IMG/VR virus record: IMGVR_UViG_3300045988_151351
Location: 64,001 to 128,000 of that record
DNA from: a virus
DNA length: 64,000 nt
Direction: 5' to 3' (one strand)
In this document: piece after piece, positions 19,286-63,999 of the stretch
Layout: each line of letters begins with the position of its first letter
How positions within the stretch are numbered: position 1 is the first letter of the stretch
Notes under the pieces: model-generated
What the model was told of the DNA's origin: nothing
What the model saw: the letters and a program-made list of their open reading frames with translations, nothing else
The model's database searches: none
Program-made: the position numbers and the translations under genes

Positions 19286-19828
19286 TTAATAACTGTTATT
19301 CACTAAACCATTAACATAAGTATAAACTGCTCTTGCCGTTGGAACTTGACTATCTCCAGAACTTGAATTTATTACTGTGACTACTGGAAATGTAGTTCCT
19401 CCCGAGGATGATGAATCTCCATTATTATTACTAAGAGATAAATAAGGAAAACAAATAAAATTAAAAATATCTCCAATTCTAGTCTTATAATTACTTCCCA
19501 CTAAATTAATTTCAGTTTTATTTGTATTTAAAGTATAATTTTCCATTTTATTTAATAATAAACCATTCTAAAATACTAATAATTGTTTTTCATCAATTAT
19601 TTCTATTGTATTAGGAATGGGAATAGTCTAAGTTATCTCTGATATAATTACTGTTTCATTTATTAAACTTTTATAAAATAATCCTTGAGAAATAGCTGTT
19701 TGTAGATCATAAGTAGAGCCGTTTATATCAATATAAACGGCTCTACCAAGAGTCTACGGGAAAATAGGATTTTTATCATTATCATGCTATTCTGTGGTCT
19801 ATAACAATTTAATATATTCTTCATTCAT
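19286..19828 (-). CDS. Hypothetical structural-module protein (about 180 aa)
   Basis: Track ORF 19286..19546 extends upstream through 4 TAG codons to ATG 19828 (MNEEYIKLL(Q)TTE(Q)HDNDKNPIFP...). Its start overlaps the stop of the giant glycine-rich gene. Confidence 0.4.
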
Positions 19829-22800: not shown

Positions 22801-23855
22801 CAGCCACCGCCGCCTCCTCCAGCTCCGTATCTATAATTAGTGCCCTAAGTAGTACTTGCTCCTTGACCAAATGCTCCTCCACTACCTGCTTCATATCGAG
22901 TAGAACGATATGTACTATTATTACAATAGCCAGTCGCTCCTCCACCATATTTTAAATCATCATGTAATCCTGCGGCTCCACCACCACCGCCAGCAACAAC
23001 TACTCGCTAATTATAAGAATCTGTTCCAATACGAATATCAGAAGCGCCACCACCACCGCCGCCAGAAGTATAAATATCCTACCACCAACGACGTCCGCCA
23101 GATCCGCCACCATTAAATCCACCAGCATTAGTTCCTCTATCAGTACTGTGAGATGATTGTCCTTGGCCGCCAGCATAACAATATAAAGTAGTATGAGCCT
23201 ACTTTAAAATAGCTATCTAATAACTGTATCCGCCTTTGCCACCATCATAAGTTGGAAAAACACTAAAATTAGCCTAATCATATGACGGAGAACCTCTAGT
23301 AATTGTAACTGCAACACTTTCGCCAGAAACAGAAGCACTGCTATCTTTAGTATAGGTCATCATTACTTCATCATCTACATTTAAATACTTAGAATAAGTA
23401 CCATTATTAGTACCGCTTACAGCACTTACGACTGTAGTTCCACCCACTGTTAAAGTAAATTTATCAAAATTCTATTCTGTTGTATATGAATATACAAACT
23501 AATAATAACCCGCTGTTACACAAGTTAAAATTGTCTGAGCAGTACTACTATCCACAGCTAGATTATTAGCAGACCAAGTTCCATTAGTATCTGGAACAAA
23601 ATGATAACTTGAAATAGCTCTAGAAAAATAAGTAGAAAAATTATTAGAAGTAATATTTGTATTATAATTTATACTACTTGGATTATTGGTACTAGTATAA
23701 CCAGTTCCTCCTTGAGCACCCCAGCATTCAAATTTATACTATCCAGCAGGTAATTGAACAATTTTTTTGTTTCCGCTATAAGGACAATTTAATATGTCTC
23801 CTGCTCTTAAAAGATAATACTTTGGAATCGAAGAAGTTAAATCATATGTTGCCAT
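19821..23855 (-). CDS. Giant glycine-rich fibre-like protein (about 1344 aa) built from three paralogous modules
   Basis: A GGGAG RBS precedes ATG 23855 (MATYDLTSSIPKYYLLRAGDILNCPYSGNKKIVQLPAG(Q)YKFECWGAQGG...). Track ORFs 21882..22343, 20835..21077 and 20331..20807 lie in the same frame. The gap 20808-21881 was checked and holds only TAG stops. The module Y-K-[LF]-E-C-W-G-A-x-G-G ... D-I-R-I-[GN] ... Y-A-R-V-[IV]-V-A-G-G-G-G occurs three times. The gene ends at TGA 19821-19823. Confidence 0.5.
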
Positions 23856-27342: not shown

Positions 27343-30300
27343 TTATCTTACAATTGGATCAAAAGTATATTGACAACCACTATTCTAAATATTAGAAATT
27401 ACTTCATTCATTGCTGCCATAACAGAACTTTCAAATTGAGCACGATAATAATATCTAATAGTACCAGTATACTTATTGCCCTTAGTTGGACCAAATGCAG
27501 TAGATTGAGTTAAAGAATTTGGCATACAAGCAAACTAACTTAATGGATATTTATTAGTACCTAACTGAATTAATAAAGCACCAGTTATTGGATATACATT
27601 ATCAACTTTGCTGCCAATAATATGCATACGACCAAAAGAATTACTATTTAAATTAAGTACTCCGTCTTTACATCCTTCTAAAACGAAAGATTTAGTTTTT
27701 CCACCAATTTGTGTTTCCTAAAAAGCATAACTACCAATATATAAACCTTTTAAGGAAGAGGAATAAGGAATACGTTCAACCTAATTTAAATTAGTTTTAT
27801 AGAATGTATAATCACCTATTTTTTCTAAACAATCACTAAATTCAAAATACTATAAATTAGTTGCACCAAAAAATGTTCTACTATCTATTGAAGAAATTTT
27901 ATTACTCAATTTTGGACTAAAATAAATACCAGTAACATTAGTATTCATAATAAAAGCTGTTGCACTTTGACTGCCACTAGTATTTTCAATACGAGTAATA
28001 GATTGTCCATTATAAGTTGATGGTAATGTAATTTTTCCTCCTAAATACTTACACATATCAAAGAAATGTATATAGTAAGTATTATTAGAAGTATCTTTTC
28101 TTATTTCATAATATTGATGATTATCATCATTTTCTAAGATATTATCATAAACATTAACTAATTCTCCAATAGCATAGAAGGTACGATCAGCATATGCTAA
28201 CTGTTTATTTAAATCAATTCTTACGCCATCTGGACTATCAGCAGCCCAGCCTGTTTGTTTCCAAGTTGTTTCAAAAGAAATCAATCCTTGCGCTGGACGT
28301 GTTTCATCCGTATTAAAATCATCTACGCTGTTCTTATAGTAATAGAAATTATTAGGAACGGTGATTCTAGTACCGTATAAATAAGTTCCAGTTACCTTAG
28401 AAATACCATCACCATTCACAAAAGTAATTTCATATGATTTACGCTCAAATCCTGCTGTAAATACATAATCTAATTTATTTGGATTTAATGTTAAAGTATT
28501 CCAATTATTTGAAGTAATCTAATCCTTCTTATTTTCGTCTTTATCAACTGTAATTATGAAATTATTATTTTCATCTTTCCAGCCTTTAAAATCATCAATA
28601 GGACGCTTTTCCTACAAAGTACCAAATGAAATATAATTATTCTTTGTTTTATCTGTAGGATCATCAAAGAAGGTTTGAGAAGAAGAACCATCAGAATTCT
28701 TAATTAACTTCTAAGTTTTTAAGATTTCTTGAGCAATAACATTTCCATCTTCATCTGTTTCTTCAACAATAAATTTTACAGAGTATTCCTTATTAACATT
28801 TTTTACAAAAATTGTTAAATTAGGATAAATGGATTGAAGTTCATTTTGAATAATATGCTCATCAATAGCTTCATTATTTTCAATATATACAATACCTGTA
28901 ATATTAGGATTTTTCTAGTTTATACCTTTAAAAGTATTATCTTTATTGTAAATCTAAGATTCATCATAAATTTTCTTTAGTAAGTCAGTGTAATTTACTA
29001 TTTTACTATGGATTTCTTCGTAGCCATTTACCGTTTCATCAAGGTAGTAAATTAATCCATTCTTAATATCTAACGTAGTAATTTTACTAACTTCATTATA
29101 TGGGATTACATCTAATTGAAAATGTCCGTTATCTTTAAAGTATTGAACATTATCAGGATCTAATTCAATTTTATCATCATTCAATAATCTATATGGACTC
29201 CATTGGACATCAACAAAATTAATTTCACAATCTTTTAAATTACTCTTTTTACATCCAAGATAATAGCGTCTTAATAATTCATAACTATAATATCCAAGAT
29301 TGCCGCCTTCAATATCCATAGTTTTGATTTTAGTTTCAATTTGGTCATCATCTTTATCTGTCAGATTCTAAATATATAATCCTTTATTTTCATCTGCTAC
29401 AACTAATCGTCCTGTCGTCGGATTAAGTGTAGGATTAACATAAGTAGTAATTAATTTATTCAATAAATTTGCTTCAATTAAAGTTAAATAATTAGTTTCA
29501 CTAGTTAAATAAAGCGTATCTAATGCTACGCCTTTTGCAAATTCTACTCTTGGAATATTAGATCCAGTATTTCTAAAGTTTTCTAGCTTTTCACTCTTAG
29601 TTAAATTTAATGCTGGCTAATCTTTCTTAAAAGTAATATTACATAGATTCATTTCTTTTAATAAAGGCATACCAGTTTTAGGATAAGACCAATCATTAAC
29701 ATCTTTATTAAAATAAGCATATGGCTAACCATCTTCGATAGCAAGACCATCATAACCCAATAATAAATCTGTCATTTTATCTGCTTTACCTTCCATAGCA
29801 AATTCTTGGAAATATAATTTACTTAAATCTCCTAAAGATTTCATCTAATCAGTACCATAAATATAATATAACTATTCACGATAATTACCACTAGACATAA
29901 TACCTTTCTTTAAATCAGGAGCTGTAAATTTAACTGGACTTAATCCATTATATTTCTAAGAAGCAAAATTTGCTCCATCAGTACCAACAGTAACATATGA
30001 ATTACGTGCTGGCGACATTTCAATCCAATATTCGCCGTCAAAAATATGATTCTTTTCACCATATTCAATATTATCTTTCCAATATTGAGCATTAGTAACT
30101 AAATTAGTCATACCTTGAGTATTAGTACCTTCAATCCATTTATCAGAAGTATTCTTTGGGTTATTCGCAGAAATACGACTTCTAATAAAATTACCACCAC
30201 TACCACTAGCATAACCATCAACAGTTAACCAAGAATCAATATAGTTAAGACGATTAGATAAAAATTGCGCGCGATATAAGTTACGGTCACCCTATAAAGC

Positions 30301-33300
30301 ATAAAAATATTGGTCAGTTTCTACCGCATATTTGCCTTCATTAGTTAAACGACCAAATATAGTATTTTCAGCGGCTGAATTAGTAGGAATAATATATTTA
30401 TATTCTTCATCTAAATTTAATGCCAATAATGGGCGGTCACCCTTCACAGCATAACTATCAGGGAACACTGAAGGATCAGTTTTATACCATTTATCAACAA
30501 TCGCACTTTTATCACTATTGGTATCAGAGTCTTTAGCAAAAATCTAAGTGACTTTAGATGGAGTATAAGATCCATTACTAAATCCCATTAATTGCTTATA
30601 TTTATCTACAATTTTGCTCTTAAAAAATTGATAAAAATTATTCCACAATACACTATCATTAGTAGAAAAACTTCCATCAATAGTGGCATCAACGTAATAT
30701 TCAAATGATGGAATACCAGTATTATTAATACCTAATTGAGTATCAATATCATAGAAAATTGGATACCAAATATAATGTTGAATTCCAGTCGCTTTTTCGA
30801 TATTATTCTTTTGTGGACCCCACGAAGCAAACATCGCATTTTTACCACGAGAGTCATAACATTCAAAAATTTCAGTCATTAAGAAATAAGTTGCTAAATA
30901 TTCAATATTAAAATAATTACTTAACTCATTCTTAAATTTTGCTTGACGATATTCTTTACAATCTTTAGTATATGTTACTCCACCATAAGTAACAGGAGCC
31001 GGTAATAACCATCTATCATCAATATTAGCTTCATTCTGAATTAACTAATAATAAGATTCATTGGCATTAAATCTATCATTACTAATAGTATAAATATTAT
31101 TTTTTTCATCTTGTAAAATATAGTATATACCAGTCTTATAAACTTTATTTTCATTATTAGTTAAAGTAATTAAATTATAATCTATTCCATTTAATTTATA
31201 ATACTTTATTTCAGAATTAAATTCATCATTAGAAATTCCATATATATCATTACCCGCATCATTAGTTCCGGTAACTACATAATATTTTCCTCTTTCGTAT
31301 AAAGCTTCTGCTAATCCATCTACTAAATTATATTGACCAATAGAAGGAATTTCATATAAAATTCCATCAAAATCAATACTACAATCTAAACAAGTACTCC
31401 AAACCCAACTAACAGCATCCTCCCAGTTAGACATTAATGCTAGTAATAATTCACGAGAGGTATTAGCATTAGTACTATCAAATTTAACAGATTCCTAACC
31501 TGGATTTGTAATAATTATTTCAGTAGATTTTTGACCTGTAGTTTCATCAGTAATTTTATTAACTTGGATTCTGTCTGGAGCTGTATTAGCTATACCATTA
31601 ACCCAGTCAGGTAAATCATCAGCGTAACTACCTGAAGCAGTATCTTTACATTCGAATAAAGCTTTTGAAATTAAATCATCATTAGCATTATATCTAACTT
31701 CAAAAGAATCGGCTACCATTGGAGCACCATGAGTAGTTACCCCATTATTATTATCCATAATTGGAGGTCTAAATGATAACTTATAACGATTCCAAGGATC
31801 GCGGAAAGAACAATAAGTTCTTGAGTTATTCTAGAACTCCCAACATTCAGCAATATCTCTTACTTTTGGTTTTCCTTCAATCTAATTCTATAAAACTTTT
31901 TTATTGGGCTTAAATCCAAAACATTCATCAGAGCCTTTGTCCAATAACATATTATATTTACCAATATATATAATATCACTTTCATTATTATATTGATTAT
32001 TATTATCTGAAGGCCAATGGAAAGCTAAAACAGGGAATCCTTTCATGGAAGTTCTATAGTCATCAGTATTTCCATATAAATCATAGTTATCAAAAGAATC
32101 TTTATAATCACAAATCGGATGCTATGAATAAGTTTCATTAACCAAATTAGCAAAACCTCGGTTATAATCACCAGAAGATTCCATAAAATCTATTTTTAAT
32201 GTAAATTTAGTTGTACCAACTGTCTCATTATCCATATAGAAAAATTCAATAAAGCATTTGCTATTTTTATTTAAAGTATTATTAGTTTTATCTTCTTCAT
32301 ATAATTTTTCAAATGGACCTTTATTCATAAACATTACATTTTTACATTTAGCTTTATAATTACGACGAGGATAATTTCTAGAAGAAGTTCCCTAAACCTA
32401 AAAAGTACATCCATCAATAGTAGTAGTAAAACTAGGACAATGATGCATATAATAATTTTGGACAGGAGTGTAAATAACTTCTTTAGTTACACTATCCAAA
32501 ATCGGAGGCCATTTTACAGGATCTAAATTTACTATATTATCTAGTTCACCACGAGCATAGGCAGCATCCAAAGGTACATTTATAAATTCTAAAGTACCCG
32601 CTTGCGCGCCTTTATCTTTAGAATAAGGCAATCTATTCTAAGTATTTTCATTATTATTAGCAGTAGTTCGCAAAATAATATATGGCATCAAAGGCTCATC
32701 TTGATGAGCGCTATTATAAGCTTTCATTCGCTGATAAGAAAAAACTTCATCTTGAATATCAGCTCGAGATTCATATAAATCTTTCTAATCCCAATACTTA
32801 ATATTTTTTTTATCAAAAGCATAATTCTATACAACTTCATGAATAGATAAATCTGTGTCATATACTCTAATACTATACAAATCAATATCACAAGTATTAG
32901 ACATAAATTTAATTACATCAGAATTAATACTCCACATTGAAGAACTACTACGACGAGCAACGCTAGTTAAAACACCATTCATAAAAATTTCTAATAACTT
33001 AGAGTTGCCACCAACCATGCCCTCTTTTGCCTTTGTATAAACAAAAGTTAAATTTAACATCTTATCTTCAACAAAATCAACAGATACAGTTTCTTCTTTA
33101 CCATTTGCAGTAAATGTAGCGTCCTATGGACTAAAATAAATACCCAATGGATCTTCTTCTGAGCCATAAGCGCAAATTAAATTATTTTTTAAATCAAAAA
33201 TCTACTCTAATCTATCATAAGTTAATTCATCATAAGTTGGAGCTTCTGGATGTTTAGGTAAATATTCCTAAGTTAAGAAAGTATCATAATTTAAATATGT

Positions 33301-35118
33301 ACTCTGATTTCGGAATTCTTTCCAAGCATCATCATCAGTCCAATCCTATTTAGAAGAATCTGCTTCATCACTGGCTTTATAACGAGTATATTTAGTAATA
33401 ACCTTAGTATAATTCTAAGGATTTCTAATTTTAAATTGAATTTCAATAGTATGCGTAGAGGTAGCACTACCATTATCAAACTCCAATGAACCAATAGGAA
33501 TAGAAATTTCAGCACCATTACTAATTCTTAAACAAGTTACATTATTTTCATCAAATAGCCAACCATTATTATACCAGTTAAAATTCTTAAACGTTGCACG
33601 CTTACCATTAATTTCAAGAGTTTCTCTGCTTAATTTACTTTCTGAATTTGAACGTCCAGTAGCAACAAAATTAACTTTTAAATCACTTTCACGCGCTAAC
33701 TTCATATCACGTAATGGATCAACTGAAATATCAAAAGTAAAATTACGAGAATAATCATACGGTTCTGTACCAACTTTAATAGTATAATAAGCGCTATCAT
33801 TTACAGCAAGATTAGTAATTTCCCAATATTCCCATTCAGCATTATTAGAAGTAATTTGTCTTGTACCAATTAATACACCATTTTTATATAAATAGACTGT
33901 GGCAATTTGATTATTTGGATCTAATACTTTAAAAGGAATTCTAATTGTTTCATAAGTATAGTATTCTGTTTTAAAATTACCAGTCCAAATTAAAGGAATT
34001 AAGCTCGTTCTATCTCTAATAGCAATTTCTTTAGTAATAAATGGCGTTCCATTACCTTTTATTCCATTCTAAGATAAATATAATTTTGCTTTAATAGTAT
34101 GTTCTCCATGAGTAAAAACATCTTTTAAAGTAGTCGCTTTAGTTGAATTTAAAATAACTGTATCAGCAGTAATAGTAAAATCATCATTAGCTTGATTAAT
34201 GTTATCTCCTTTATATTCTCTATTCAAAACTAGATAATCATCAAAATATACTTCTATGGTACGTTCTACTCCACTTGACATTAACCATGCTGTTCTCACT
34301 GAACCATCATCAAAAGGATAAATATTAGAAAAATTATCTTCCTTCCAAGATAAATCCAAAGCATGTTTTGTAATAAATACAGTACGCTTAGTTGGCGCTA
34401 AAAATTTATTATTTTCAGGGTCTGGATTGTTAGTAATATCAAAAGTAATTTGATGAGTAGTTGAATCTCTTAATACTTCTGTTAAATCAAATGTTTGAGC
34501 AACATTATGATTGAATACAACTCTATCACTTTGCCAAATTACTTCATATCCTTCACCAGATTTATTTTGCTAACTAACTGTTATTTGACCTTCTACAGAC
34601 TCTGCTTGCGGCACGTTATCTATAGTACGGCACTTAACTAAAACAGTCACACTAGCCTATTCATTATTTAAAATATCTTGTGTACAATTTAAAGTTAAAG
34701 AAGTAGAACCTAGTACTTTTTTTTCAGAGCTTTCGTCACTTCCTCCACCCATTGTTAATTTTTCACATTTTGCACATTCTTCTCGATCTTCATTTAATCC
34801 AGTTCCTATAATGCGATAAAAGCATCCATCTGAATTTAAAATTAAATCATTTATATGATAATTTGTTGTCGATAACTTACCAATCTCAATTAAATAATCA
34901 ATAGGATTCTCATCTATATCATATTCAATTTCTGCGTTATCATCAGTACCATATATTACCTATACGCCACTAGAACCAATGGGTAATTTATTCTCGTCGG
35001 CAGTATCTAAATAAATGCGGCCAGTATCAGTGGCAACATAAAAATATCCTTCAGTCTAAGGAAAATTTTTAATCTTTTCTTCTAGGCCTTGTACTGGACG
35101 GAAATGAATTTTAGACAT
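27343..35118 (-). CDS. Giant virion-associated protein (about 2591 aa) with C-terminal BspA-type leucine-rich repeats
   Basis: An AAGGAG RBS precedes ATG 35118 (MSKIHFRPVQGLEEKIKNFPQTEGYFYVATDTGRIYLDTADENK...). Every minus-strand track ORF from 27850 to 34359 (ten ORFs) is in the same frame. Each gap from 27343 to 35118 was checked codon by codon and holds only TAG (more than 50 of them), never TAA or TGA. The C-terminus (...YFEFSDCLEKIGDYTFYKTNLN(Q)VERIPYSSSLKGLYIGSYAF(Q)ETQIGGKTKSFVLEGCKD...) is LRR-like. The gene ends at TAA 27343-27345. Confidence 0.5.
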
Positions 35119-50768: not shown

Positions 50769-50851
50769 AATAATCCCTCCTTTTACTCATTATTCTATAA
50801 ATTAGTGAAAAATTGTCCTACTTTATTAAATATATCTACCCAAAAAGAAAA

Positions 50852-50886
50852 AGGTGAGATCCATTAAGAATCTCACCTTCATTTTA
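50852..50886. terminator. Intrinsic terminator hairpin downstream of the tape-measure gene
   Basis: aaggtgagat ccattaag aatctcacctt. On the minus strand it is followed by TTTTCTTTTTGGG. Confidence 0.5.
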
Positions 50887-53800
50887 TTTACGATTAGCAT
50901 ATTGCGAAGCTACATTAATTAATGTGTTAAATGCTTCTTGAATTTCATTCCTATCAGTTACGTTCGGGAAGCTAGCATCAATATGAACCTATTGTTCTAA
51001 TATATCATTACCAGTTCCAAAAGTGCTATAAATTGGATTAATTGGCATTGTAGTATATCTACTGCGCAAATCAATCTCAGAAGCAATTTCACGAACCATC
51101 TTAATAGAACTTAGCATATTCTAAGTATCTTCTTTATTAAGAACTAATTCTTTTTCATGAAGCATTGCTAATTTACCACTATCGCCCCATTGACCAGTGT
51201 AACCACCAGTTCTAAAAGTCTTTCCTACAGTTTCTTCCCATAGCCAATCAGGAATTTGAGTAAAGTTAGTATATCCTGCAAATTTGCCTTCGCCTAATTT
51301 ATATCCTTTTTCATAGAAAGCATTAACACGAGCAGTAGATGCCATATCATTATAATTACCTTCTGACATCTTTCTATCACGATATGCTTTATATTTATTA
51401 TAAAGTTCCGATCCAACAGGTACAGTACCCATTAAAGCAGAATAGTCAACACTTGGATCATAATCATCATAATCAGAAGAAGAACTGTTGGAACCCGCAT
51501 CCATAGACGCTTGCGCGGCAATAGCCTATTGAATCTTACTAATAAGCTATTCATAATAAGAAATTAAATTCATAATTTCCTATCTCTAACGAGCATAGGC
51601 CTCAGTAGCATTACGAACAGCCTATAACTCTTGAGTTAAAGCAGGAACAACTTTATTTATAACTTCATCCTTCAGTTGGTCACTGGCATTAGTAACATCA
51701 TTAACTTTATTCTTAGTATCAACTAAATCTTTACCTACTAAATCAGTAAGTCTATCAGTTTCAGCTTGCCATTCTTGGAAAGCATTATTAATCTAACCAG
51801 TATAATCAATAATTGCTGTTTTCCATTGATCACCACTATCAATGATTTCATCATAAGCATTAACCCAAGCATCTTGAACTACACGAGAATCTTCTTCTTG
51901 TGCAATTCTATATAAATCACTAGAAGCTTGAATTAATTGAGTATATTCATCAATAATTCTCTGGCGGTCAGCTTGATAATTACCTTCACGATAAAGAGCG
52001 TCTTCATTAGCCTTTTCATCAATTTCTTTTAATTTTTCAGCTAATTCTTGTTCATATTGTAATTTCTATTGACCATATTTATTAGTAGCATCAAGGCGAA
52101 TATTATATAAATCATTCTCAGCATCAGCTAAAGCTTGCTAAGCATCATCTATCTTATCCTAATCCGCAGTATAAACATAACCAAAATTACCTTCATTATC
52201 GCGCTGTAAGCGGACCTTGCCCATCGCATTTTGAGCTTCATCTAGGGCAATCTAAGCTTGAAGAACTTTATATTTAGCTTGAGCAATATCCAACTCTAAC
52301 TAACTTAATTTATCTTTTTCTCTTAACTATTCGATTTCTTTAGAAAATTGATAATATTTATCTTTTGCTGCTTGATTATTAGTTTTATTACTAGCCTTAT
52401 TAACATCATTAAGTAATTTATTCATCTCATAAATTTGGTTAGTCTTTGTTAAATATTCGTCTTGGTATTTAGACAATCTATCCAAAGAATCATTTAAAGC
52501 ATCCCAACCCATACCATCAGTCATTGCTTTATTCATATTCTCTGCGGCTTGTTCCATTTTAGTAGTTAAAACTTCCTTAATGGCTTCACCATATGCTTCA
52601 GCATCTGATAGCATTTGTTCTTCTGCCTCATTAAATTTTGCTACAATAGCATCATAATTTTTTTGTAACAATTCTCTTTCAGCATCATCACTAGCCTAAG
52701 CGAGTGCCGCAGCCGCAGCATCTCTTTCAGCTTTAAGAGATTCATACCAAGCTTTAGAAGTATCAAACTTATTGCGTTTTGTCTAGGCATTACCTTCTAA
52801 TACAGTTAATACTCTTGTATAATCTGTATCTCTTCCCAATAGAGAAAGAATAGAACGATAATGATCTAATACGCTAGTAAGGTGCTCCATCTAATCAGTA
52901 TATTTAGATAACTCTTCTTCAGCTAAATCTAAAGTATTACCATAGTATTCAAGCATTTGTTTATCCAAATCTTGAACAGCTTCCAAATTATCTATTATAC
53001 TGTCATAAGCATCTTGTAAACCTTCTACATATGCTGCTTGTGAAATTTCTCCATTAGCATAAGAACTTTCAAGACTGTTATAATAATCTTCATAAGATTT
53101 CATCTTTCCAAAAGTAGGATCAATCTAACCTTGTAAATATCCTAATGCTTCAGCAGCCTTATATATATTATCTGATAATTTATTAAAGAAATAATCTAAT
53201 TTCTTTAGTTCATTATCATCTAATGTAATTTTAACTTCCAACTCGTGATTGAGAATTTCAAAATTATTATCCTACCACTCGTAGAATTTTTCTTCTGCCT
53301 AATCCTCTAAATCTTCAATTAAACTCTTAGTCTCTTCATATTGAGAAAGCGCAGATTTTAATTCAGCAATCTTATCTTCAATGGCTTTTAGAACACTTTC
53401 TTCATATTCATCCTGCGCTTCTTTAGTCTTTAAACTATTAATATGCTCTTCTGCGGCATGGAGTTCATCATAAAGACGAGTCATTTCCTAAGTATAATTA
53501 CTAATGTCACCATCTTCATCAAATTGGAAATTAACTCCTGCCTTTTTTGCAGCAAGTAAAAGTTCTTGTTTATCTAATGCTAAATACTTTTTAGCTTCTT
53601 CTGCTTTTTTATTGAGTAATCCAATTTCATCTTGAAGCATCTTATTATTTGCTTTCATCGCTGAAATTCTGGATCTACCCCACATGCGATCGGCAGCTTT
53701 ATTACCTTTATCTAAAGAGCGAGTTAAATCATGAATAGAATCATCTATTTCTTTATATCTATCTACTACATCAGATTTTTTAGTTAAATCTTTTTTACTG

Positions 53801-56800
53801 GCTTTAGATTTAGACCCTCCGCCTCCGCCACCTTGCTTAGCAGACGATGAAACATTTCCTCTATTTGAAGAATAAGTAGCAGCAGGTGTATTACCACCTT
53901 TTACAGTAGAACTAGTCACTTCTGGAGTTAAAGGATTATCTTCAGTTGAAATCTAAGCTACAGCAGCATATCCTTCAACTTCCATTGGAGGGCCAGGGAC
54001 AGAATACTTTTTAATTGGAGTATAACTTACAGTATGAGGAGTTCCATCTGCTTCTTCACCTTGTACAACAGTCTGTTCTGCTAATGGAATAATATGTTCC
54101 TCATAAGTAGGTACTTCCATAGGCTATTTGACGTAAGTTGTATCAACTTTAGCTCGTACCCCAAGAGATCCTAAGAAACCATTCATGTCCTCAACAGACA
54201 TACCAGTTTCTAAAGCCATTCTATTTACAGCAGCAATCCAATCGCCGCTCATAGCATCTCCAGATTTAATTAATCCATTCTAGATATCTTCTATCCCTTG
54301 TAATACAGTCGCTTTATCTGCCTCAAATTGTTCAGAATTTAATGAAAATCCAAATTCTACATCAGGTAAATTATTTACTTCATTAATTAAATCAGCAAAT
54401 CCCTAATTAAATTCTAAAGTTTTTACAGTTTCTATAGCAACCGCTTGACCTAATTGATTTATCGCAGCTATATCACCCTACATAGCTTTTTCAATCAATT
54501 TCATATTTTTTGTATTGAAAAATTCATCAGGTAATTTTAGATCATCACTGGCTCCGACTAAATCTGCGATAGCTTTTGTACAATCAACTACAGCATCTGC
54601 ATAATCTTCAGTTAATTTATCAGTAGAATTTAAAGCTTTCTTCCAAGTTTTCCAATTATCTACTAATGAAGAAACTCCTCTATTCATGCGCTAATTTTTA
54701 ACTGCTAATTTAGCGGCTTCTTCACCAGTAATTCCATAAGCTTTAGCCATTCTGCTGGCTTGAACTTCTAATGTATCTGCTTCAAGTCCATACTTATCTG
54801 CCGCCTATCCAATAATTACAGCAGCTCTTAAGTTATCTTCTGCAGCCTATTTGGATGCTTCATCATTAGATAATAAAGCTCTCTAATATTTTTCAATTTC
54901 CTCAGTACAATTATTATAAGCAGAAGCCAAATTAATTAATCCATTAGCATAGGATTGATAATCATCTGGATTCTCTTCTCTAATGGCATCTAATTCATTT
55001 AAAGAACTAGCATTTAAAGCTAAAACACTTAACTACTAATTATAAGCTGCTAAACCTACAGTTCCATTATTATATAATTCTTGTAATTCTCCTAAATTAT
55101 TCGTCATAGAAGCAATGACTTGTTCAGCCATTTCGCCATCATAATTACCATCTAAATAATTCTATCGAATATCTCCCAATTGAGTGTAAAAATTTTGCGC
55201 ATATTGTAGATAAGAATTATATTTTTCCTCACTAAATCCTGTTTTATTTTTTAAAATTTCTCCAGTTTCTTCATTGGTATAATCTAAAATATACTATGCT
55301 GCTTCCTATAAGCTATCTTTAGAAACTCCCATTAAAGCTAAAGAAGCATCTAAGCTACTATCATCGCTGGCAAAATTAGCAACAGAAGCAATATCTCTAT
55401 CTTTAGTAAATTTTCTATTGCCATTATCATCAAACCAATTAGTTTTATTAATAATGGCGCCTTCTTTATTTAAATTAGCAAATTCTGTCTTAATACCTTC
55501 AATACTTTCTTTGCTAGTACCACCTAATAACTAATCTAATGTTTTCTATTGTCCTAAGAATCTATAACCTTCTGAAGTTATCATAAATAATTCTTTTATA
55601 GCTGGATTAATTTCTAACAATTTTTTATAATCATCATCAGAAATTATATCATTAGTTTTTAAATCCTTAGTAATTGAAGATACATCTGAAATAGTTTTTC
55701 TAAAATTTTCTAACTATGTCTAAGCCTTAACTGTAGCTTTACCAGCCTAAGACATAAGAGTTATATAATACTACCAGTTTGCATTTGTAGTATCTAAATT
55801 TATACCCTAATCTATTATTAAATCATTTAATTTAGCTATGGTATTTGGGTCTCCCCAATCTATCGTTGATAATACATTAGATAATTTTTCAGCATCCTTG
55901 CCCGCGGTTTCAAATATTGATTCTAATAAATTAGCTGTATCAGTGCCTGACATATTAAAAGCTTTTTGTAAATTATCAGCCATTGATTGCGCGCCTGATA
56001 AAGTTAAATCAGAATTTTCTAAAAATCCCTTATTAATAGAACTTGATAAATTATTACCAATTGCAGTAAACTTATCATTATAACCATCTATAGCAGATAT
56101 TAAAGAATTAACATAGGCCTAGGCATTATCATAACCCATATTCTGAGCATCTTCGTCAGATATAATATCAGTAGCATTTTTCTTTCTAATATTACTTTCT
56201 AAGTCAATTACATTTTGTCTAGTAGCATTAGATAAATCAGCACTGGCTCCACCCGCCATACCAATCATAAAATTACCTAATCCTTTACCAAATGTTTCCC
56301 CAGTTTTCTCTACTCTTAAAAGAGTTTGATTATATTCTTCAACACTTCCATTAAGAGCATCAAAAGCTTCTTTTTGAGCTAAAGCTCTACGCGCTGTTTC
56401 GTCACTTAATGTAAAATCAGCTGATCCATCGCCTTTAGAATATACTCCAATATTTCCAGATTTATTTGCTACCCAAGTATATCCCATCATTTCAGCATAA
56501 GCTTTTTGTGCTGCTTCATCGCTCATCTAATGAGCATCATTGCTATATTTTTCATCATATAATCTTTTAGTTTCATCTGTTAAATTTTTTGCTAATAAAG
56601 TATTTAATTCATCTTTATGATTACTATTTTTATAAATTGAATTATCCTAAAAATTATTATTAACTAATTCTTTATTATTCTATAAAATAGCGGCAGTATT
56701 AGTAGAAACTTCAGAACATAAATTTTCTAATTGGGTAGCAGTCATACCCAAAGAAGAAATTAAAGATTTATTAGTGTCATCTAAACTATTATAAGCCTAG

Positions 56801-59800
56801 TCATAATTACCACCATTAGTAATATAAGCTTTTTCAAGAGCTTCTAAAGCATCTGACTATTGTTTGTCATTCTATCTTTGCTGCACATCTTGAGCAATAG
56901 CATCTGTCATTGCAATAATCAAAGCTGCTAAATTTGCTACAGCTGTTGGTAATGCTCCAACTCCACTAGCATATCCTGCTATAGTAAGAGCAGAACCTAC
57001 GCCAGCTCCGAAAGTTAAATTCTTTGATACTCGAGATCCAAAAGAGACATTATCTTTTTCGACAGCTTTACTGTTACTTAAGCTATTTGAAGCCATTGTT
57101 TTATTAGACTAAGCAGCTACATTATTCATTCTAGCATTTTCTAATTTTTGCTAATTATTTGCTATAGCCTTATCTAAATCTTCCTAATTAATTTCAATTA
57201 ATCCAGATTCAGCATTATAATGGCTAATTACACCATAAGTTTCAATCAAAGTTCTCGCTGCTTTATTAGCTTCAATAACTGCCTATTTAAATTCTTCTGT
57301 TCCTTTAGTTAATGTATCTATATTGTCCTATATTTCAGAATACTGATTTATAGTTTCCTATAAATTTTTATAAGCATTTTCTGCTTCAGATAATTTATCA
57401 GCAGCATCTTTAGCATCATTAGACATCTAATCAAAATGTTTCTAAGCTTTTTCAGAAATAGTATCTAAATTAGCTACAACTACTGCTATAACTGCTATTA
57501 AGGCTGTTAAAGCTAAAGATACCCATCCTATTGGACCTAAAGCCGCATTAAAAGCTGCTCCAAATCCTGCTACAGCGGGTGTAGCCCCTGCGGCGCTCGC
57601 TCCAGTTTTTATAATAGCACCAGACAATAACTAAAAAGTAGGAGCTAAAGTAGTGATCATCATTAATACTGTTCCAGCAATACTTAAAAATTTTTCCCAT
57701 CCTGACATATCAGGATCTTCTATAGTATTAACAATACCACCTATCATCTATAAAGCACTTACTACTGATAAGGCACTATTGGCACAAGTAACTAAATTAT
57801 CTGACCAAATTTTTTGTTTCCCCTATGCTTCAGCAAGAGCATCTCCTACACCCTTTATTCTACCCTATAAAGTGTCACTTTCCTATTTTAAACGCTATTC
57901 TGCGTTTGCTGTTTCTACTACGCTATTAGCATAATCTCTCATTTCTTTTTCACTAGACTAAGTAGCTTGAGCGGCAGATCCTATTACACTATCATTTATA
58001 TGAGTGAAAAGACCCAGTATAGACTAAAGCGTTTCTTCTAAATCTTCTGCTTTAATATCTCCGTTAGACAATTCCTAGGGTAATTTTTGCAATGAAGCAA
58101 TATCCTCATCAGAAATAATATCAATTCCTTCATTTTCTTTCATTGATGATAAAATTGTTGCAAACTATTCTAATTTATTTGTAACGTTAGTACTATCTTT
58201 ACCAATATCTTGAATAACTTTTCTTGCTTTGTCTAATCCCATTGTAGATGCACGAACTTTTTTTAACTATTCACTAGTTGCTCCTGCACTTTGACCTGGT
58301 GCGATATTGGGATTAGAAGCATTATTAGCATATATCTAAACCGCAGCATTAGCTTTTTTCTATTTGGCAATATCTAAAGCTTTAGCTGTTTCAATAGTCT
58401 ATTTTCCCTAAACATCAAGTTGATCCATCATTTGTTGAGTGACCTATTTTTCTAACTCACTCATTTGACCAACCTTATCTATCATCTTATCCTAAAGATT
58501 TAATTTCTAAATATAAAATTCACTAGCTGTACTATTAGCTGTAGTATCAGGAGTTGTATCATCATTGGCTAATACTTCAGCAGCATTTCTAATAAAGTTC
58601 TATTTTTCTGTTCTTACTTGTTGCTATCCTTGAGGAGTCATCATTTTTAAGTTATAAGCAATATTACTAATAGATTGAGCAATCTAATTTGAAAATACTT
58701 TAGTTAAAATAGCTCCTAAAGTAGTTAATACTCCTCCAAGGCCTCCAACAGTATCAATTAAATTATCAAAATAAGTGAGAAGTTTTTCAATAATATTTAA
58801 AGCTTTAATAAATGCTTTATCATCAACTAAATTAGCATAAATTCCTTCCCAAGCCGCGCGAACACGATTACGAGCAGCTTCCCAAGATTCAGCATAAATA
58901 TCAGCCTATTCCTATAAAGAACCATCGGCATTTTTAGCACGTTTAGCATTCTCTTTATAGAAATCATAATTATTCATTAAAGTCATTAATTGAGTGTATT
59001 GACGCACACCAGCTACAGTCTATGCCAAAGCCACCTAAGTATCTCTACTCCAAGTATTCCACTTAGTACCCATTTCATCTAAGATAACATCCATATCTTT
59101 TAATTGGCCATCAGTATCCTTAACTTCAATACCAACTTTATGTAAGGCAGTAGAATATTTATTTAAATCAGTACCATCATCTAGTGTCTCCCCTAACTTT
59201 AAACCTTGAATACGAGAGAATAAAGTTTTTAAAGCAGTACCAACTATATCAGCACTTTCACGAGTTGTAGCTGTAATCGTAGCTAAAGCTGCTGCCGCAT
59301 TATCAAAACTTAAACCAATAGTACTAGCAACAGAGGAGAACTTCTATAAACCTTCTGAAATTTCACTACTACTAGATGCAGTATCCGCGCCTAAACGTAC
59401 CATCGCATCAGCATAATGTTCCAAAGATTCAGAACCATCATAAAAGTTATTCCATACAGAAGTTAATTGATCAGAAATAGTGGTAGCACTTTCATTTGCT
59501 ACATTAGCCATTTTTAAAGTAATCGCTGTTCTATCTTCTACCTCTTTATCACTTAAACCCTATTGATAGTAAATCAAAGAAGCATTAGTATAATCTAATG
59601 TAGTTGCACTTAACGCTTTCGCAGCTTTATTTGCTCTTTCAGCAAATTTATCCATATAATCAATATTATGTCCAGTGACTATACGGATTTTATTTAAAGA
59701 TTCATTTAAATCTTTAGCATATCCATAAGCCGACTAAATAGCTCCTATAAATCCATGAAGCATACTAGATGACATCTGCCAACGAGCAGTATTCTTCAAT

Positions 59801-60216
59801 GAAACCCATAACTCCTATACAGCAGCATTAGAACGCTTAATTGGAATTTCAGCATTGGTAATAGATTGCGCTAATTGCTAAAATGCTTTTTGTCCGTCTG
59901 GACCTAATTTCTATAATTGTTCACCATATGCAGATAATGTCTTACCACTACGTTTTAATGATTCATTTAATTTAGAAAAATCTAAATTACCAGTATTTAC
60001 ATTAACAGCCTAATCTAAATGCGCTTTTAATTCAGCTACCGCAGTAGTAGCATCATTTAATTCTTTTGTTAAACCTAAGCCGGTTGATTGCTTAGTAGAA
60101 GTATTTACCAAACGAGTTAAAGAATTCTACAATTCTTGTAACTAACTTCGTGCGGTTCCGGTGTCCGCAGTAAAAGCTAGATTAACTGTATATTCTTTAT
60201 TCAAACCTTTTGCCAT
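50884..60216 (-). CDS. Tail tape-measure protein (about 3110 aa, many TAG codons)
   Basis: An AAGGAG RBS precedes ATG 60216 (MAKGLNKEYTVNLAFTADTGTARS...), a TMP-core-like N-terminal region. Nine track ORFs between 51121 and 57627 all share one frame (coordinates congruent to 0 mod 3). Gaps 52672-52890, 53485-53490 and 57097-57441 were checked and hold only TAG. The protein is long and alpha-helical/coiled-coil, with hydrophobic segments near 56872-57627 (GAGVGSALTIAGYASGVGALP..., LALTALIAVIAVVVANL). It ends ...QYANRK* at TAA 50884-50886. Confidence 0.5.
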
Positions 60217-60261
60217 TGATATAACTCCTTTCTCTCTTGTCGTTTTTATCTTACGTAAAAT

Positions 60262-60300
60262 AAAAAAATCGCCTGAGAATAATCATATATTCTCAGGCGA
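60262..60300. terminator. Intrinsic terminator hairpin
   Basis: cgcctgagaat aatcatat attctcaggcg. On the minus strand it is followed by ATTTTTTTATTTT. It lies between the chaperone-like gene and the TMP gene. Confidence 0.5.
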
Positions 60301-60345
60301 CTATTCCTATTTAATTTTAAAATAAAAATAAATATATTAACTTAA

Positions 60346-60879
60346 TTAACCCAATTTCTCAACAACGTTCTTCAATAAAGTAAGATTCTCTGGATCAGCT
60401 AATTTCTTTTGAATTTCAGTAGCATCAAGATTCAAATTACTATAATCACGTCCAATAGAATCAAGAATACCAAGCGCGGAATTGCGATAAGTATAAATCG
60501 CGGTTGCCAATTCATGAGTCACTTTTGTTAAATAATAAAATTCGCTTTCAGGAACTAAGCCAATAATTAAGTTAAGTAATTTATTACTACTTAATAAATC
60601 ATATAACTTCATTGGGTCTGACTTTTGCTTTTCTGTAAAACTAATATTAGAATAAGCATAGACAATCTCTAAAGCAAGCCACATATCTAATTTAAGATTA
60701 TTATAATATCCAGCATCATCATCAACTGAATTATTTAATACTCTTGAAATTAATTCTGCTTTTTCCGCAATTGGAAGATATTGCTTTACTTCAACTGTCT
60801 GATCATTAAATTCTACAGTTTGAAATTCATCTAATTTGTCTTTAGTTAAACCTAATTTTGAAAATGCTATCTTTGCCAT
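60346..60879 (-). CDS. Tail assembly chaperone-like protein (177 aa, no TAG), immediately upstream of the TMP gene
   Basis: Track ORF MAKIAFSKLGLTKDKLDEFQTVEFNDQTVEVKQYLPIAEKAELISRVL... Its position relative to the TMP gene and its size fit a gpG-like chaperone. Confidence 0.4.
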   Translation of the reverse strand: MAKIAFSKLGLTKDKLDEFQTVEFNDQTVEVKQYLPIAEKAELISRVLNNSVDDDAGYYNNLKLDMWLALEIVYAYSNISFTEKQKSDPMKLYDLLSSNKLLNLIIGLVPESEFYYLTKVTHELATAIYTYRNSALGILDSIGRDYSNLNLDATEIQKKLADPENLTLLKNVVEKLG

Positions 60880-60945: not shown

Positions 60946-61992
60946 TTAAATCTAAAATTTTACTCCGATTTTTTTATCTTCATAATCTTTTAGCAAATTA
61001 TCTAAATCTTTCTCCAAATATTTGGATAAATTTGTAGTAACTTGTTTTACTTTACCAGGTTGAGTTACTTTTTCTTTAAAAGCTGATAAAAATTCAGTTT
61101 CATTAGCATTTTTGAAATCTTTTTTAATCTACTAGATATATTTATTAATCTAATACATACCCATTAAACCAGCGCGCTATGTTTTTACTGCATATTGTAC
61201 ACTCTATTCATTATCCGCCGTTACGTCTCCTAAAAAGAAACCTAAAGTATTATCAACACTTAACATACCATTTTTACTATCTGTAATATAAAAACCGACT
61301 CGATTTTCTAATCCGCCAATCCCAGTAAAAGGAATTTTATTTATATAAAAATTAGCATAAGCTTCAGCAATAGTACCTCTATTATTAATTTTTGCTCTCC
61401 CCCATTCACCATCATCTTTTCGCCAGAAAATAGGTAAACCTACGCTCTTTTTAAATCTCGCTTTCGCAATTTCCCATCTATCATATACTGAATTAGCAGT
61501 TTCATCTAATAGAGTACTATCATATTCTTCAGCTTCTAATTTCAGCATATCTTCTATTCCATTTATAGAATATTCTAAAGACTAGTACTAATTTTCTACT
61601 ACATGAGATAAATCATTGTCTGATAATCCAATCTAAAAACTACCATTTTCATCATGATATACATAGGTCATCACAATCTTTTGACCATAATAGGCATTAA
61701 ATAAATTCTAAAAATTAAAAAATTTTTCATATAATTCTCTTTCCATAGAATAAATTTCTTGCCGTATAGAACTTATATCCTATTTATTCTTTTTTAAAGA
61801 CCTTTTAATTTTAATTAATTCATGATATTTAGTATATTCTTTTTCAAATATCTCTAATGCTTCCATAACTTGAGTAGTAGTAACTGCTAACTCAGAATTT
61901 AAAGATTGCTATACTATCTGAGCTAACTCTTTTGTACTAATGCTGACCATCTCTTGAGCAACATCAGTTAAATTAAAATTTTCGATAGCCAC
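60946..61992 (-). CDS. Hypothetical tail-module protein (about 348 aa), GTG start
   Basis: An AAGGAGG RBS lies 9 nt upstream of GTG 61992 (VAIENFNLTDVAQEMVSISTKELAQ...). It runs through track ORF 61204..61548 and two TAG codons into a 74-codon C-terminal extension (...MGMYQINKYIQQIKKDFKNANETEF...) ending at TAA 60946. Confidence 0.4.
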
Positions 61993-62007: not shown

Positions 62008-62050
62008 TTTTCTCAATATAATAAAATAAAGGGAGAGGAATAAATCCTCT
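62008..62050. terminator. Intrinsic terminator hairpin (AAGGGAGAGG-n6-CCTCTCCCTT)
   Basis: aagggagaggaataaatcctctccctt. On the minus strand it is followed by TTATTTTATT. It shares the GGGAGAGG/CCTCTCCC stem with the hairpins at 24509 and 24558. Confidence 0.5.
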
Positions 62051-62062
62051 CCCTTATATTAT

Positions 62063-63244
62063 TTACTTGTTTTCTTTATCAAGTTTAGATAAAAGTTCAT
62101 CTAGTTCGTTCTTTTCTTCAACTACTGTTGTTTCTTTCGGAACTTCTTTGATTACCCTTTTTTCTGCTTTCTTAATTACTTCAGGTTTCTTTTCAGCACT
62201 GGGTTCAGACTTTACAACCCAATGTTTACCTTTAATAATCATAAATTAATCAGTGAAACGAGCGTTGTGACTGGCATCATGAACAGTCTGAGTTCTATGA
62301 ATGTCACTAGCGCCGCCTTCCTCAATAATCTGAATAGCAGCAAGGACTTTCTTACTGTGGTCGAAACGAGTATAATCAGGGAATGCGTCCATAGTAAATG
62401 TGAAAGTAGAAGGATCGCCAGAAGAAGCCATTGTGAAAGTAAAGTTAGACTGAATCTTGCAGTTAGGAATTATAAATTCAGCAGGCATATCAACACCATT
62501 TTGATCACGGAATAAGGTAGAAGCTTCAAGATAATAGTTACCACCGAATTTATCAGCAGTAATTTCAATCTGTTGAGCACCACTAGCTTTTTCAGTATAA
62601 TAATCAACAATAGCACTATCATATGCTGCAGCTGCTGGAAGACCATTATGTTCATCAAAAGTATAATCACCTGTACCAGCAACATAATCATCATGTGGAG
62701 TTTTAACAACTAAATCAAAATATTCATTGCCATTAGTATCCTTTTTAGCAGTTAACTCCTCATGGACAGGAATAAAAGGTTCAGAAATAATTTCGCCATC
62801 TTTGACAAACATAACATAAGCGAAATTCTCTTGATTACCAGTTGGAAGATAAGGCTTTTTAGAAACACGAATAGTAACTTGTCCTTCAGTAGTTGTACTA
62901 TCAATTTGTGCCTTATCTACAGTTTCAGTGATATGCTGTTTAATAGTACTATCAGCACTTGCTTCAATTAAACCGGCACCAGAAAGAATCATAAAACCTT
63001 CTGGAGAAATAAGAGCATCTTCCATTGTGAAAGTAACAGTTCTTTCACCTTCCCAAGCTACTAAACGAGCATTACCACGGCCACCTTGAGCATATACAGT
63101 GGTAGCTGCGCCTTCCATGCTAGAAGTCTTTAATGTATCGAAATAGATAACTGGTTCATTCTTATAGAAGATTTTATTACCGATCTTTTGAGCTGCTTTA
63201 GCCTTCAAAACAACATCGCAAATCTCACGAACACCAAATTTCAT
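62063..63244 (-). CDS. Major structural protein (about 393 aa; major tail tube/sheath or other abundant virion protein) with a Lys-rich C-terminal extension after a single TAG
   Basis: Track ORF 62246..63244 (332 aa, AAGGAGG RBS, MKFGVREICDVVLKAKAAQKIGNKIFYKNEPVIYFDTLK...) has no internal TAG. Its TAG at 62246 is followed in frame by FMIIKGKHWVVKSEPSAEKKPEVIKKAEKRVIKEVPKETTVVEEKNELDELLSKLDKENK* (TAA 62063). It is bracketed by terminators and sits two genes upstream of the chaperone/TMP. Confidence 0.5.
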
Positions 63245-63267: not shown

Positions 63268-63999
63268 TTAATGGATATTTTTCATCCAATTCTCCGGCTT
63301 GTTATCTGACTTAGCGCCAGCCAACCTAGACCGGATATCAATATCCCAATTAATATAAAGCTAATATCTCTCAACAAGGTCAAAAAGTTGGAACATTGTT
63401 AAATCCATTAAATCCTGTAGAGACATAGAGTTCAAACCTACAGTAAGCATTGAAAGATACTAACTAAATATACTAGCATTAGCGTTACCATTTAATTCAG
63501 CAACGCGCTAGCGCCCACGCATTAATTTATCAGCAATTTTTTTAGCTGTCTCATTAGCAGGATTAAATCCCAATTCTTGCGAAGCACTAGATTTAGCACA
63601 AAAGATTTCTCTAGTAAGAGATTGTAATATCTCAAAACTACTTTCATCAATCATACTTGTATTATCTTCTCCCTAAAGCATAATACTTCTAGGAGTAAAT
63701 AATATTTTTTTATTTGGAAATAATAATGTAAGAAATTGACGAGTAGCATATTTTTTATCTGCCATTTCCTTTTCCTACATCATTGTCATAAATATCTAAA
63801 AATTACTTGTATTTCTTAAAAGACTTTCGCCCTCGTTTATATGTAAATTATCTTTGTTAATACAAAAACACTACATTCCTATAAAAAAGTCTTGTTCTCC
63901 AACATAAGCAATTTCACGGATTTTAGGCTAATGAATAATTGATTGTATTTCAGGAACTGGAATATCAGTTCCGCACATAAGCGCCAATCGTATATCCAT
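63268..63999 (-). CDS. Hypothetical structural-module protein (at least 243 aa; may start beyond the window end)
   Basis: MDIRLALMCGTDIPVPEIQSIIH(Q)PKIREIAYVGEQDFFIGM(Q)CFCINK... has about 8 TAG codons and ends ...KPENWMKNIH* at TAA about 63268. Confidence 0.35.

Follow-up and report, generated by a model that had tools for sequence, protein, structure and literature searches.

The stretch of 64,000 nucleotides that forms positions 64,001 to 128,000 of IMG/VR virus record IMGVR_UViG_3300045988_151351 (hereafter the window, to which coordinates refer unless a relative is named) poses a question of gene definition: does the region 50884-60216 hold a row of small genes, or one giant gene whose internal TAG codons are read as sense? 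Translated with the standard code (code 11), the region breaks into open reading frames (ORFs) of 61-143 amino acids (aa). A preliminary description of the locus had assigned nine such ORFs to one shared frame, which is confirmed by coordinate arithmetic on the nine ORFs of 60 aa or more that the standard code yields on the minus strand (51121-51504 to 57442-57627). The region is in all likelihood a single minus-strand gene, encoding the tape measure protein (TMP) of a large siphovirus of low GC content in which TAG specifies glutamine (genetic code 15).

The gene starts with an ATG at 60216 and ends with a TAA stop (50884-50886) after 3110 sense codons. Within the region its frame contains 91 TAG codons and, apart from the terminal TAA, neither TAA nor TGA, whereas the other five frames contain 155-525 stops each. 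The preliminary description, whose coordinates proved exact but which left the strand unstated, had proposed one gene of about 3110 codons on the basis of those gaps between ORFs that it had checked; the check was extended over the whole frame, and no TAA or TGA was found besides the terminal TAA. The open frame reaches back to 60282, and the ATG at 60216 is the first one within it; the resulting N-terminus, MAKGLNKE, is conserved among relatives (the motif was used as a search pattern on them). Because coding density is restored across the entire window once TAG is treated as sense (60.4 kb of the 64 kb then lie in ORFs of 150 codons or more, versus 19.2 kb under the standard code), the open TAG-only frame is not a product of chance. 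Tandem repeats were considered as a source of the length of the gene, and no more than four DNA repeats were found, all of them trivial (score 58 at most).

The protein aligns collinearly, from its N-terminal core to its C-terminal motif, with uninterrupted standard-code ORFs of 2578-3260 aa. Since these standard-code relatives carry the same N-to-C architecture in one uninterrupted ORF, the window gene is taken to specify a single polypeptide. An in-frame TAA in one relative (L003, the closest one in ENA) and a lone TAG in another (L004) had suggested that the TMP is split or carries a conserved internal stop. This was ruled out: the TAA is private to L003, and the two sites are not homologous. 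The TAA (12023-12025 of L003) is a TTA to TAA variant; a near-identical IMG/VR contig (L027) has TTA at this place and, judging from the two sequences, the stop reflects a mutation confined to L003 or an error of assembly.

If TAG were a true stop, the locus would be a decayed or fragmented gene, or nine small standard-code genes, and no 3110-aa protein would be made. The small size of the ORFs obtained with code 11 (only 61-143 aa) and a window without a suppressor tRNA are compatible with this alternative, yet it has to accommodate 91 TAG codons beside no TAA or TGA before the terminal stop in 9.3 kb where the other frames are full of stops (155-525), a TAG-only pattern that spans the whole window, glutamine in homologues opposite the TAG sites (see below), orthologues that are uninterrupted standard-code ORFs, and the same recoding in at least 30 distinct relatives. 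The fragmented-gene reading is effectively refuted, and the probability that we leave to it is negligible.

Profile searches identify the product of the single recoded gene. TIGR01760 matches aa 156-505 with 123 bits (cut-off 28.8), covering profile positions 4-342 of 349, and PF10145 matches aa 196-403 (E=1e-25, 91.2 bits, cut-off 33.2). Matches to eight PHROG families (best E=1e-72) all fall within aa 18-519; seven of these families are annotated as tape measure protein, and the TMP families PHROG 4211, 34405 and 28 match over aa 20-519. The protein is a TMP with a bona fide TMP core in its N-terminal third, and the core claimed earlier for the N-terminus is borne out by the TIGR01760 and PF10145 matches. 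A Pfam scan of the full protein returned only PF10145 and two weak coiled-coil-type matches, with no lytic transglycosylase and no M23 peptidase. A crAss-like virion RNA polymerase, or another giant protein unrelated to tails, was also considered and is ruled out by the TMP profile matches and the synteny of the tail module.

The decoding of TAG can be judged from codon usage and from homologous residues. In the TMP, TAG makes up 91 of the 189 glutamine-type codons, next to 90 CAA and 8 CAG, and across 34 ORFs of the window it makes up 341 of 835; CAG is nearly absent throughout, and TAG appears to have replaced it. Among 120 database homologues of aa 1-527, glutamine occupies 51.6% of the alignment cells opposite 14 TAG codons and 57.6% of those opposite CAA or CAG codons, compared with a background of 6.5%. 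Some TAG sites are of the invariant type, with glutamine in 120 of 120 homologues at codon 219 and in 114 of 116 at codon 437. As a control for circularity, the test was repeated on 13 relatives with TAG-free TMP frames, in which 82 TAG sites are covered: glutamine accounts for 29.1% of the residues at TAG sites and for 30.2% at CAA/CAG sites, and the substitution spectrum is the same at both (E, K, A, S, and D come next). At the level of aligned sequences, these comparisons indicate that TAG encodes glutamine; the preliminary description had named no amino acid for it.

Read-through of TAG as another amino acid (e.g., Tyr, Trp, Ser, or pyrrolysine) would be compatible with the failure to see a decoding tRNA in the window, and with those TAG sites at which other residues predominate, such as codon 113 (L/M) and codon 291 (E). 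However, the residue spectrum at TAG sites is indistinguishable from that at CAA/CAG sites, some sites are invariant glutamine, and the codon counts of the TMP point to a numerical replacement of CAG by TAG; moreover, the related phage phAss-1 has tRNA-Sup(CTA) genes that were assigned to glutamine (PMC10607447). Insertion of a residue other than glutamine is considered very improbable.

Glutamine decoding of so many codons has to be efficient. The full-length yield equals p^91, where p is the read-through per codon, and amounts to 40% at 99% read-through and 0.9% at 95%. With 91 TAG codons in one gene, translation of the TMP therefore demands an all but complete reassignment of TAG. This presumably requires a suppressor tRNA-Gln(CUA) of high efficiency, perhaps aided by manipulation of release factors, which would be encoded outside the window, as in phAss-1; no tRNA was found within 10 kb of the TMP gene in 39 relatives.

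The use of TAG is uneven among the genes of the window. Its share of the glutamine-type codons is 91/189 in the TMP gene, 39/72 in the fibre gene, 7/35 in NrdD, and 0/33 in a PolIII alpha fragment (p=3e-8); the latter two, the low-TAG replication genes, lie on the plus strand (PolIII alpha and NrdD at 263-2668 and 3302-5545). The putative tube gene (62246-63244, minus strand) has 0/12 (p=0.002), though it is located 2 kb from the TMP gene. Recoding is enriched in late and structural genes and depleted in replication genes, with the tube gene as the exception. The TAG-free PolIII alpha fragment fits the early/late model of recoded phages, and a possible reason for the TAG-free tube gene is that several hundred copies of the tube protein are needed per tail. 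The tube gene of the relative L003 is likewise TAG-free. Large gut phage clades with mixed codes, in which recoding is concentrated in structural and lysis genes, have been described (Borges et al., bioRxiv 10.1101/2021.08.26.457843).

The anatomy of the 3110-aa protein (Table 1) is dominated by helices. In an AlphaFold2 (AF2) model of a 48%-identical proxy, the core (aa 1-520) is a bundle of short helices, and long helices follow at aa 520-840. Hydrophobic stretches (Kyte-Doolittle, window 19) are present at aa 843-869, 891-922 (where the maximum of 2.65 is reached), and 1083-1107; the block aa 801-900 contains 52 hydrophobic and only 8 charged residues, and an equivalent of the first cluster is present in five of five compared relatives. 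The membrane-like helices that the preliminary description had placed in the middle of the protein are real as hydrophobic segments, but they are located at 27-36% of its length. The flanks of the hypervariable spacer are alignable in 40-66 of 70 relatives.

In the charged region behind the linker, the heptad-signal fraction is 0.4-0.68 (0.04 in shuffled sequence), while over the whole protein 33% of the residues lie above the 95th percentile of the heptad score (4% in shuffled sequence). Proline constitutes 1.2% of the residues. The AF2 proxies contain 83% helix in the N-terminal 911 aa and 69% in the C-terminal 279 aa, and within the charged region the proxy model includes an 82-residue helix with a predicted local distance difference test score (pLDDT) above 90. 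The TMP is predicted to be almost entirely alpha-helical; the coiled-coil-like character attributed earlier to the rest of the protein agrees with the helix content of the proxies and with the heptad score.

The C-terminal 130 aa had been suggested to form a separate enzymatic or anchoring domain, and the peptide quoted for it, DWLWEETVGK..., is present from aa 2990. A motif within this module, TGGYTG..LHEKELVLNKEDT, is common to the TMPs of Tsamsa, phiL47, the SPbeta-like BUCT083, and phAss-1, with identities of 55% over 47 aa (Tsamsa), 49% over 53 aa (BUCT083), and 46% over 50 aa (phiL47); matches were also obtained with phAss-1 and MT835936. Across 79 sequences, the columns T, G, K, E, L, T, and L are invariant. 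A hidden Markov model search of the C-terminal domain, by which a peptidase or lysozyme might have been recognized, gave no Pfam match at E<=10, and phmmer found no match among PDB sequences. A profile built from the 79 homologues retrieved nothing credible from the PDB; its only matches were to de novo designed TIM barrels, over a strand-helix motif of 24 residues, and were judged spurious. The AF2 model of the C-terminus shows no compact fold, with short helices and low confidence exactly at the motif, and a Foldseek search of the PDB with this model gave nothing with E below 3. An enzymatic C-terminal domain is rejected by these five lines (Pfam, phmmer, the 79-sequence profile, the AF2 model, and Foldseek), which leaves anchoring as the better of the two earlier options. 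The module is a lineage-wide TMP end-piece. In solved siphovirus tails, the C-terminus of the TMP sits in the tip complex, and by analogy the module is most likely a tail-tip anchor.

The length of the tail can be estimated from two phages that possess a homologous tube protein, TMP core, and C-terminal motif. Tsamsa, with a TMP of 3123 aa and a tail of 440 nm (PMC3903500), gives 0.141 nm per residue, and phiL47, with 3275 aa and 480 nm (PMC3888941), gives 0.147 nm per residue. This calibration predicts a tail of about 438-456 nm (roughly 440-455 nm) for 3110 aa, in agreement with the earlier estimate of about 450 nm. As suggested by lambda gpH, TP901-1, T5 pb2, and 80alpha, a few extended TMP copies would fill the lumen of the tube. 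The conserved C-terminal module would anchor them in the tail-tip initiator complex, and tube subunits would polymerise around the TMP up to its N-terminal end, so that protein length would set tail length; 0.141-0.147 nm per residue would correspond to about 105-115 tube rings. During infection the TMP would be expelled, and aa 843-922 and 1083-1107 would probably enter the host membrane and help to form a conduit for the DNA.

Alternatively, only part of the TMP might act as a ruler, the middle, the linker, or the post-linker region being cargo or a tip appendage, in which case the tail would be far shorter than 440 nm. Such a division is conceivable given the non-helical Pro/Gly linker (aa 2031-2142), which divides the protein in two, the lack of conservation in the middle 800 aa, and the non-ruler domains known in some TMPs (e.g., SLT and M23 in the SPbeta-like TMP). 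On the other hand, total length has been kept while sequence was replaced, as expected under selection on length; the tails of Tsamsa and phiL47, whose TMPs have the same end-modules and belong to the same length class, have measured lengths that correspond to the whole protein at about 0.14-0.15 nm per residue; and no globular or enzymatic domain was detected. A partial ruler is regarded as improbable.

The neighbouring genes form a tail module in the order tube, phrog_30570 gene, TMP, and fibre with an S74 domain; the order is the same in Enterococcus faecium phage VRE9_3 and in phAss-1 and matches that of cultured giant Firmicute siphoviruses. In tblastn searches, the tube protein matched 'major tail protein' genes of Tsamsa-like Bacillus siphophages, of the Lactococcus 949 group, and of VRE9_3 (41% identity). 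The 177-aa product of the phrog_30570 gene is 43% identical to that of a VRE9_3 gene located between tube and TMP, and its position alone makes it a candidate tail assembly chaperone. The fibre protein carries a Peptidase_S74 chaperone domain at aa 1643-1695, and its N-terminal 95 aa match the gene directly after the TMP in phAss-1 and VRE9_3. In L003, the closest long relative, the SPbeta virion families YonD, YonB, YomW, and YomV are encoded upstream of the TMP. Terminator-like hairpins on either side of the TMP gene agree with its boundaries, and the one before the TMP start could attenuate transcription of the TMP relative to the high-copy tube gene. No terminase gene is present in the window. 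An additional TAG-rich gene of unknown function (60946-61950, 334 aa) lies between the tube gene and the chaperone-like gene.

The same neighbourhood bears on whether the tail might be contractile, the TMP then setting the length of a sheathed myovirus tail. Upstream of the tube gene, the window extends for 3.8 kb, and a sheath gene could sit beyond its end; nevertheless, both the tube protein and the order of the genes agree with those of the siphoviruses Tsamsa, phiL47/949, and VRE9_3, and the 10 kb upstream of the TMP in L003 encode the YonB, YomW, and YomV families and no sheath family. A contractile tail is held to be extremely improbable.

Table 1. Features of the TMP gene and of the adjacent tail module (aa, residues of the TMP)
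Feature	Coordinates	TMP residues	Strand	Basis or remark
Gene of the phrog_4051 family	63268-63999			
Putative major tail (tube) protein, 332 aa, no TAG	62246-63244		-	phrog_2729, E=1.6e-55
Third strong terminator-like hairpin	62029-62055		-	the three hairpins together bracket the tube and TMP genes
177-aa gene, phrog_30570	60346-60879		-	just upstream of TMP
Terminator-like hairpin, 15 paired bases and T-run	60267-60302		-	between 177-aa gene and TMP start
Shine-Dalgarno-like AAAGGAG	60225-60231		-	8 nt upstream of ATG 60216
TMP core domain	58702-59751	aa 156-505	-	TIGR01760, PF10145 (aa 196-403), PHROGs
Hydrophobic membrane-like cluster 1	57451-57690	aa 843-922	-	Kyte-Doolittle maximum 2.65
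Hydrophobic segment 2	56896-56970	aa 1083-1107	-	Kyte-Doolittle 1.84
Hypervariable spacer	54817-57219	about aa 1000-1800	-	alignable in 6-19 of 70 relatives
Pro/Gly/Ser/Thr-rich non-helical linker ending GGGGGG	53791-54126	aa 2031-2142	-	11 of 36 prolines
Highly charged, heptad-rich helical region	51517-53790	about aa 2143-2900	-	30-37% charged residues per block
Conserved C-terminal TMP module	50887-51249	aa 2990-3110	-	homology with the ends of other TMPs
Core motif TGGYTGQWGDSGKLAMLHEKELVLNKEDTQNMLSSIKMVRE	51088-51210	aa 3003-3043	-	within the C-terminal module
Terminator-like hairpin, 13 paired bases and T-run	50850-50880		-	directly after TMP stop
Distal tail/fibre protein, 1748 aa	45522-50768		-	immediately downstream of TMP; tail fibre PHROGs

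Several points weigh against a recoded, full-length siphovirus ruler. The window, which is part of a genome of probably 100-200 kb, contains no tRNA gene, and the decoding agent is thus not observed. The heptad signal was gauged with a crude score of our own making, and the AF2 models are monomers of homologues that are 48-53% identical to the window TMP, with predicted template modelling scores (pTM) of 0.35-0.48. The tail length is an extrapolation from homologues for a phage known here from its genes alone, and a rise of 0.15 nm per residue may not hold for the Pro/Gly linker and the hydrophobic hairpins. No separate Dit or Tal was recognised among the window genes in profile searches. Finally, no in-frame XXXYYYZ heptamer indicative of a G/GT-type -1 frameshift was found at the 3' end of 60346-60879, nor was there an overlapping ORF in an alternative frame (60217-60879 was scanned). 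A frameshifted G/GT chaperone pair is common at TMP loci; because this feature is not universal, its absence does not exclude that the gene is a TMP.

The relatives of the gene differ in length and in code. An IMG/VR scan yielded 77 loci, 70 of them with complete TMP frames, which form 42 distinct clusters at 90% identity. The TMPs of these clusters have 2572-3404 aa (median 2931), and 13 of the 42 equal or exceed the window TMP in length; in one further locus (L074), a frame of at least 3845 codons runs off the end. More than ten in-frame TAG codons (33-111) are present in 30 of the 42 clusters, none in 11, and four in the remaining one (L015, 3404 codons), while L004 (2379-10832) has exactly one, at codon 777 of 2817. 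Such sparse-TAG orthologues may represent a code change at an early stage.

The lengths appear bimodal, with 19 clusters at 2739-2892 aa, 16 at 3059-3174 aa, and few between, which may mean that there are two classes of tail length about 45 nm apart. Between the window TMP and that of L003 (10001-19237), the pattern is mosaic: identity amounts to 84% over the C-terminal 959 aa, a stretch that includes the charged, heptad-rich region, and to 46% over the N-terminal 1058 aa; the middles (1094 and 1048 aa) cannot be aligned, and the totals, 3110 and 3078 aa, are 1% apart. Selection on length itself is suggested, since L003 has kept its length despite a replaced middle and the clade stays within 2572-3404 aa. 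It is tentatively proposed, as a possibility that we regard as rather doubtful, that this TMP family is a fine-grained recorder of the shift from the standard code to code 15 and at the same time evidence of selection on ruler length and of discrete length classes. If true, it would provide direct comparative evidence for selection on ruler length and for discrete classes of tail length.

Among genome assemblies, relatives were found only in bins of metagenome-assembled genomes (L087-L098), labelled Clostridia, Oscillospiraceae, Acutalibacteraceae, Erysipelotrichaceae, 'Mollicutes/Tenericutes', and Candidatus Limenecus. Assignment of the host from these bins was rejected; the labels are inconsistent, and the contigs are probably binned phage contigs. 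The host is probably a member of the Bacillota. Some of the binned contigs with TMP relatives measure 120-164 kb and may be whole phage genomes binned as bacteria.

Elsewhere in the window, further unusual genes lie on the minus strand, the late strand. A protein of 2591 aa that has a BspA-type leucine-rich repeat close to its C-terminus (27343-35118) and a 1344-aa glycine-rich protein (19821-23855) are encoded there, as are two adjacent radical-SAM/4Fe-4S enzymes, each with TAG codons (16816-19045). A response-regulator receiver-domain protein is encoded on the plus strand (12919-13569).

For annotation, the locus illustrates that the standard code shatters a 9.3-kb gene, and most of the window, into meaningless ORFs, whereas code 15 restores a complete tail module. 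A gene with 91 TAG codons also sets a stringent lower bound on the efficiency of TAG decoding in late infection. The locus adds a lineage to the gut phages that combine TAG to Gln recoding with siphovirus tails of about 0.45 um; no new kind of protein or mechanism is revealed.

Among the known systems of this kind, the phAss-1 group ('Phassvirus', of the Caudoviricetes code 15 clade) comprises human-gut phages with TAG to Gln recoding concentrated in virion genes; their TMPs of 3149-3209 aa are fragmented under code 11, and phAss-1 has three tRNA-Sup(CTA) genes elsewhere in its genome (Babkin et al. 2023, PMC10607447). Homology between the window TMP and those of this group extends over the N-terminal core, the C-terminal motif, and some stretches of the C-terminal half, and the gene after the TMP has a homologous N-terminus; the TMP cores, however, are only about 30-34% identical. 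A megablast search with 24 kb gave no phAss-1 match, and no near-identical phage was found in INPHARED. Because there is no nucleotide match and the core identity is 30-34%, the window phage is placed outside the proposed Phassvirus genus (phAss-1, BK046881, BK025033), for which a nucleotide identity of about 80% or more and a genus-specific synteny would be expected. Its closer TMP relatives are metagenomic contigs at 46-84% identity. In its mixed codes among relatives and its contigs of 100-200 kb, the clade resembles the 'Agate' clade, with genomes of about 154 kb and mixed codes among close relatives (Borges et al., bioRxiv 10.1101/2021.08.26.457843).

Cultured phages with the standard code offer further comparisons. 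The TMP of Bacillus phage vB_BanS-Tsamsa (gp226) has 3123 aa, nearly the length of the window TMP, with 22.6% identity over 470 aa of the core and 55% over 47 aa of the motif; Tsamsa also shares a homologous tube protein and the gene order. It differs in being a temperate Bacillus phage with the standard code, in a core that lies about 500 aa further from the N-terminus, and in being distant overall. The TMP of phiL47 and the 949 group (ORF166, 3275 aa; tails of 480-500 nm) shows 24% identity in the core and 46% in the motif, and the tube proteins are 29% identical. As is probable for the window phage, phiL47 is a giant siphovirus with a low-GC Firmicute host; unlike the window phage, phiL47 uses the standard code, and in its TMP, which is the longer of the two, no segment counts as strongly hydrophobic at the threshold applied. 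In the SPbeta YomI-type TMP (BUCT083, 2294 aa), a homologous core and a near-identical motif, SGGYTG..KLAFLHDKELILNKTDTENML, are combined with a lytic transglycosylase (SLT) and an M23 domain in the middle of the protein; the window TMP has neither and is 800 aa longer, while its close relative L003 carries SPbeta virion-module families beside the TMP. Thermus phage P23-45 also has a very long TMP, of 5002 aa, and the tail of its sibling P74-26 measures almost 1 um; compared with the window TMP, the P23-45/P74-26 protein is 60% longer, unrelated in sequence as far as tested, and endowed with a metallopeptidase domain. The earlier claim that the window TMP is among the longest known therefore holds only loosely, since Tsamsa, phiL47, and phAss-1 are in the same class and P23-45, with 5002 aa, has the longest of the annotated TMPs that were checked. 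Its length is typical for its own clade and far from the record, and the window phage is a new lineage of an already known group.

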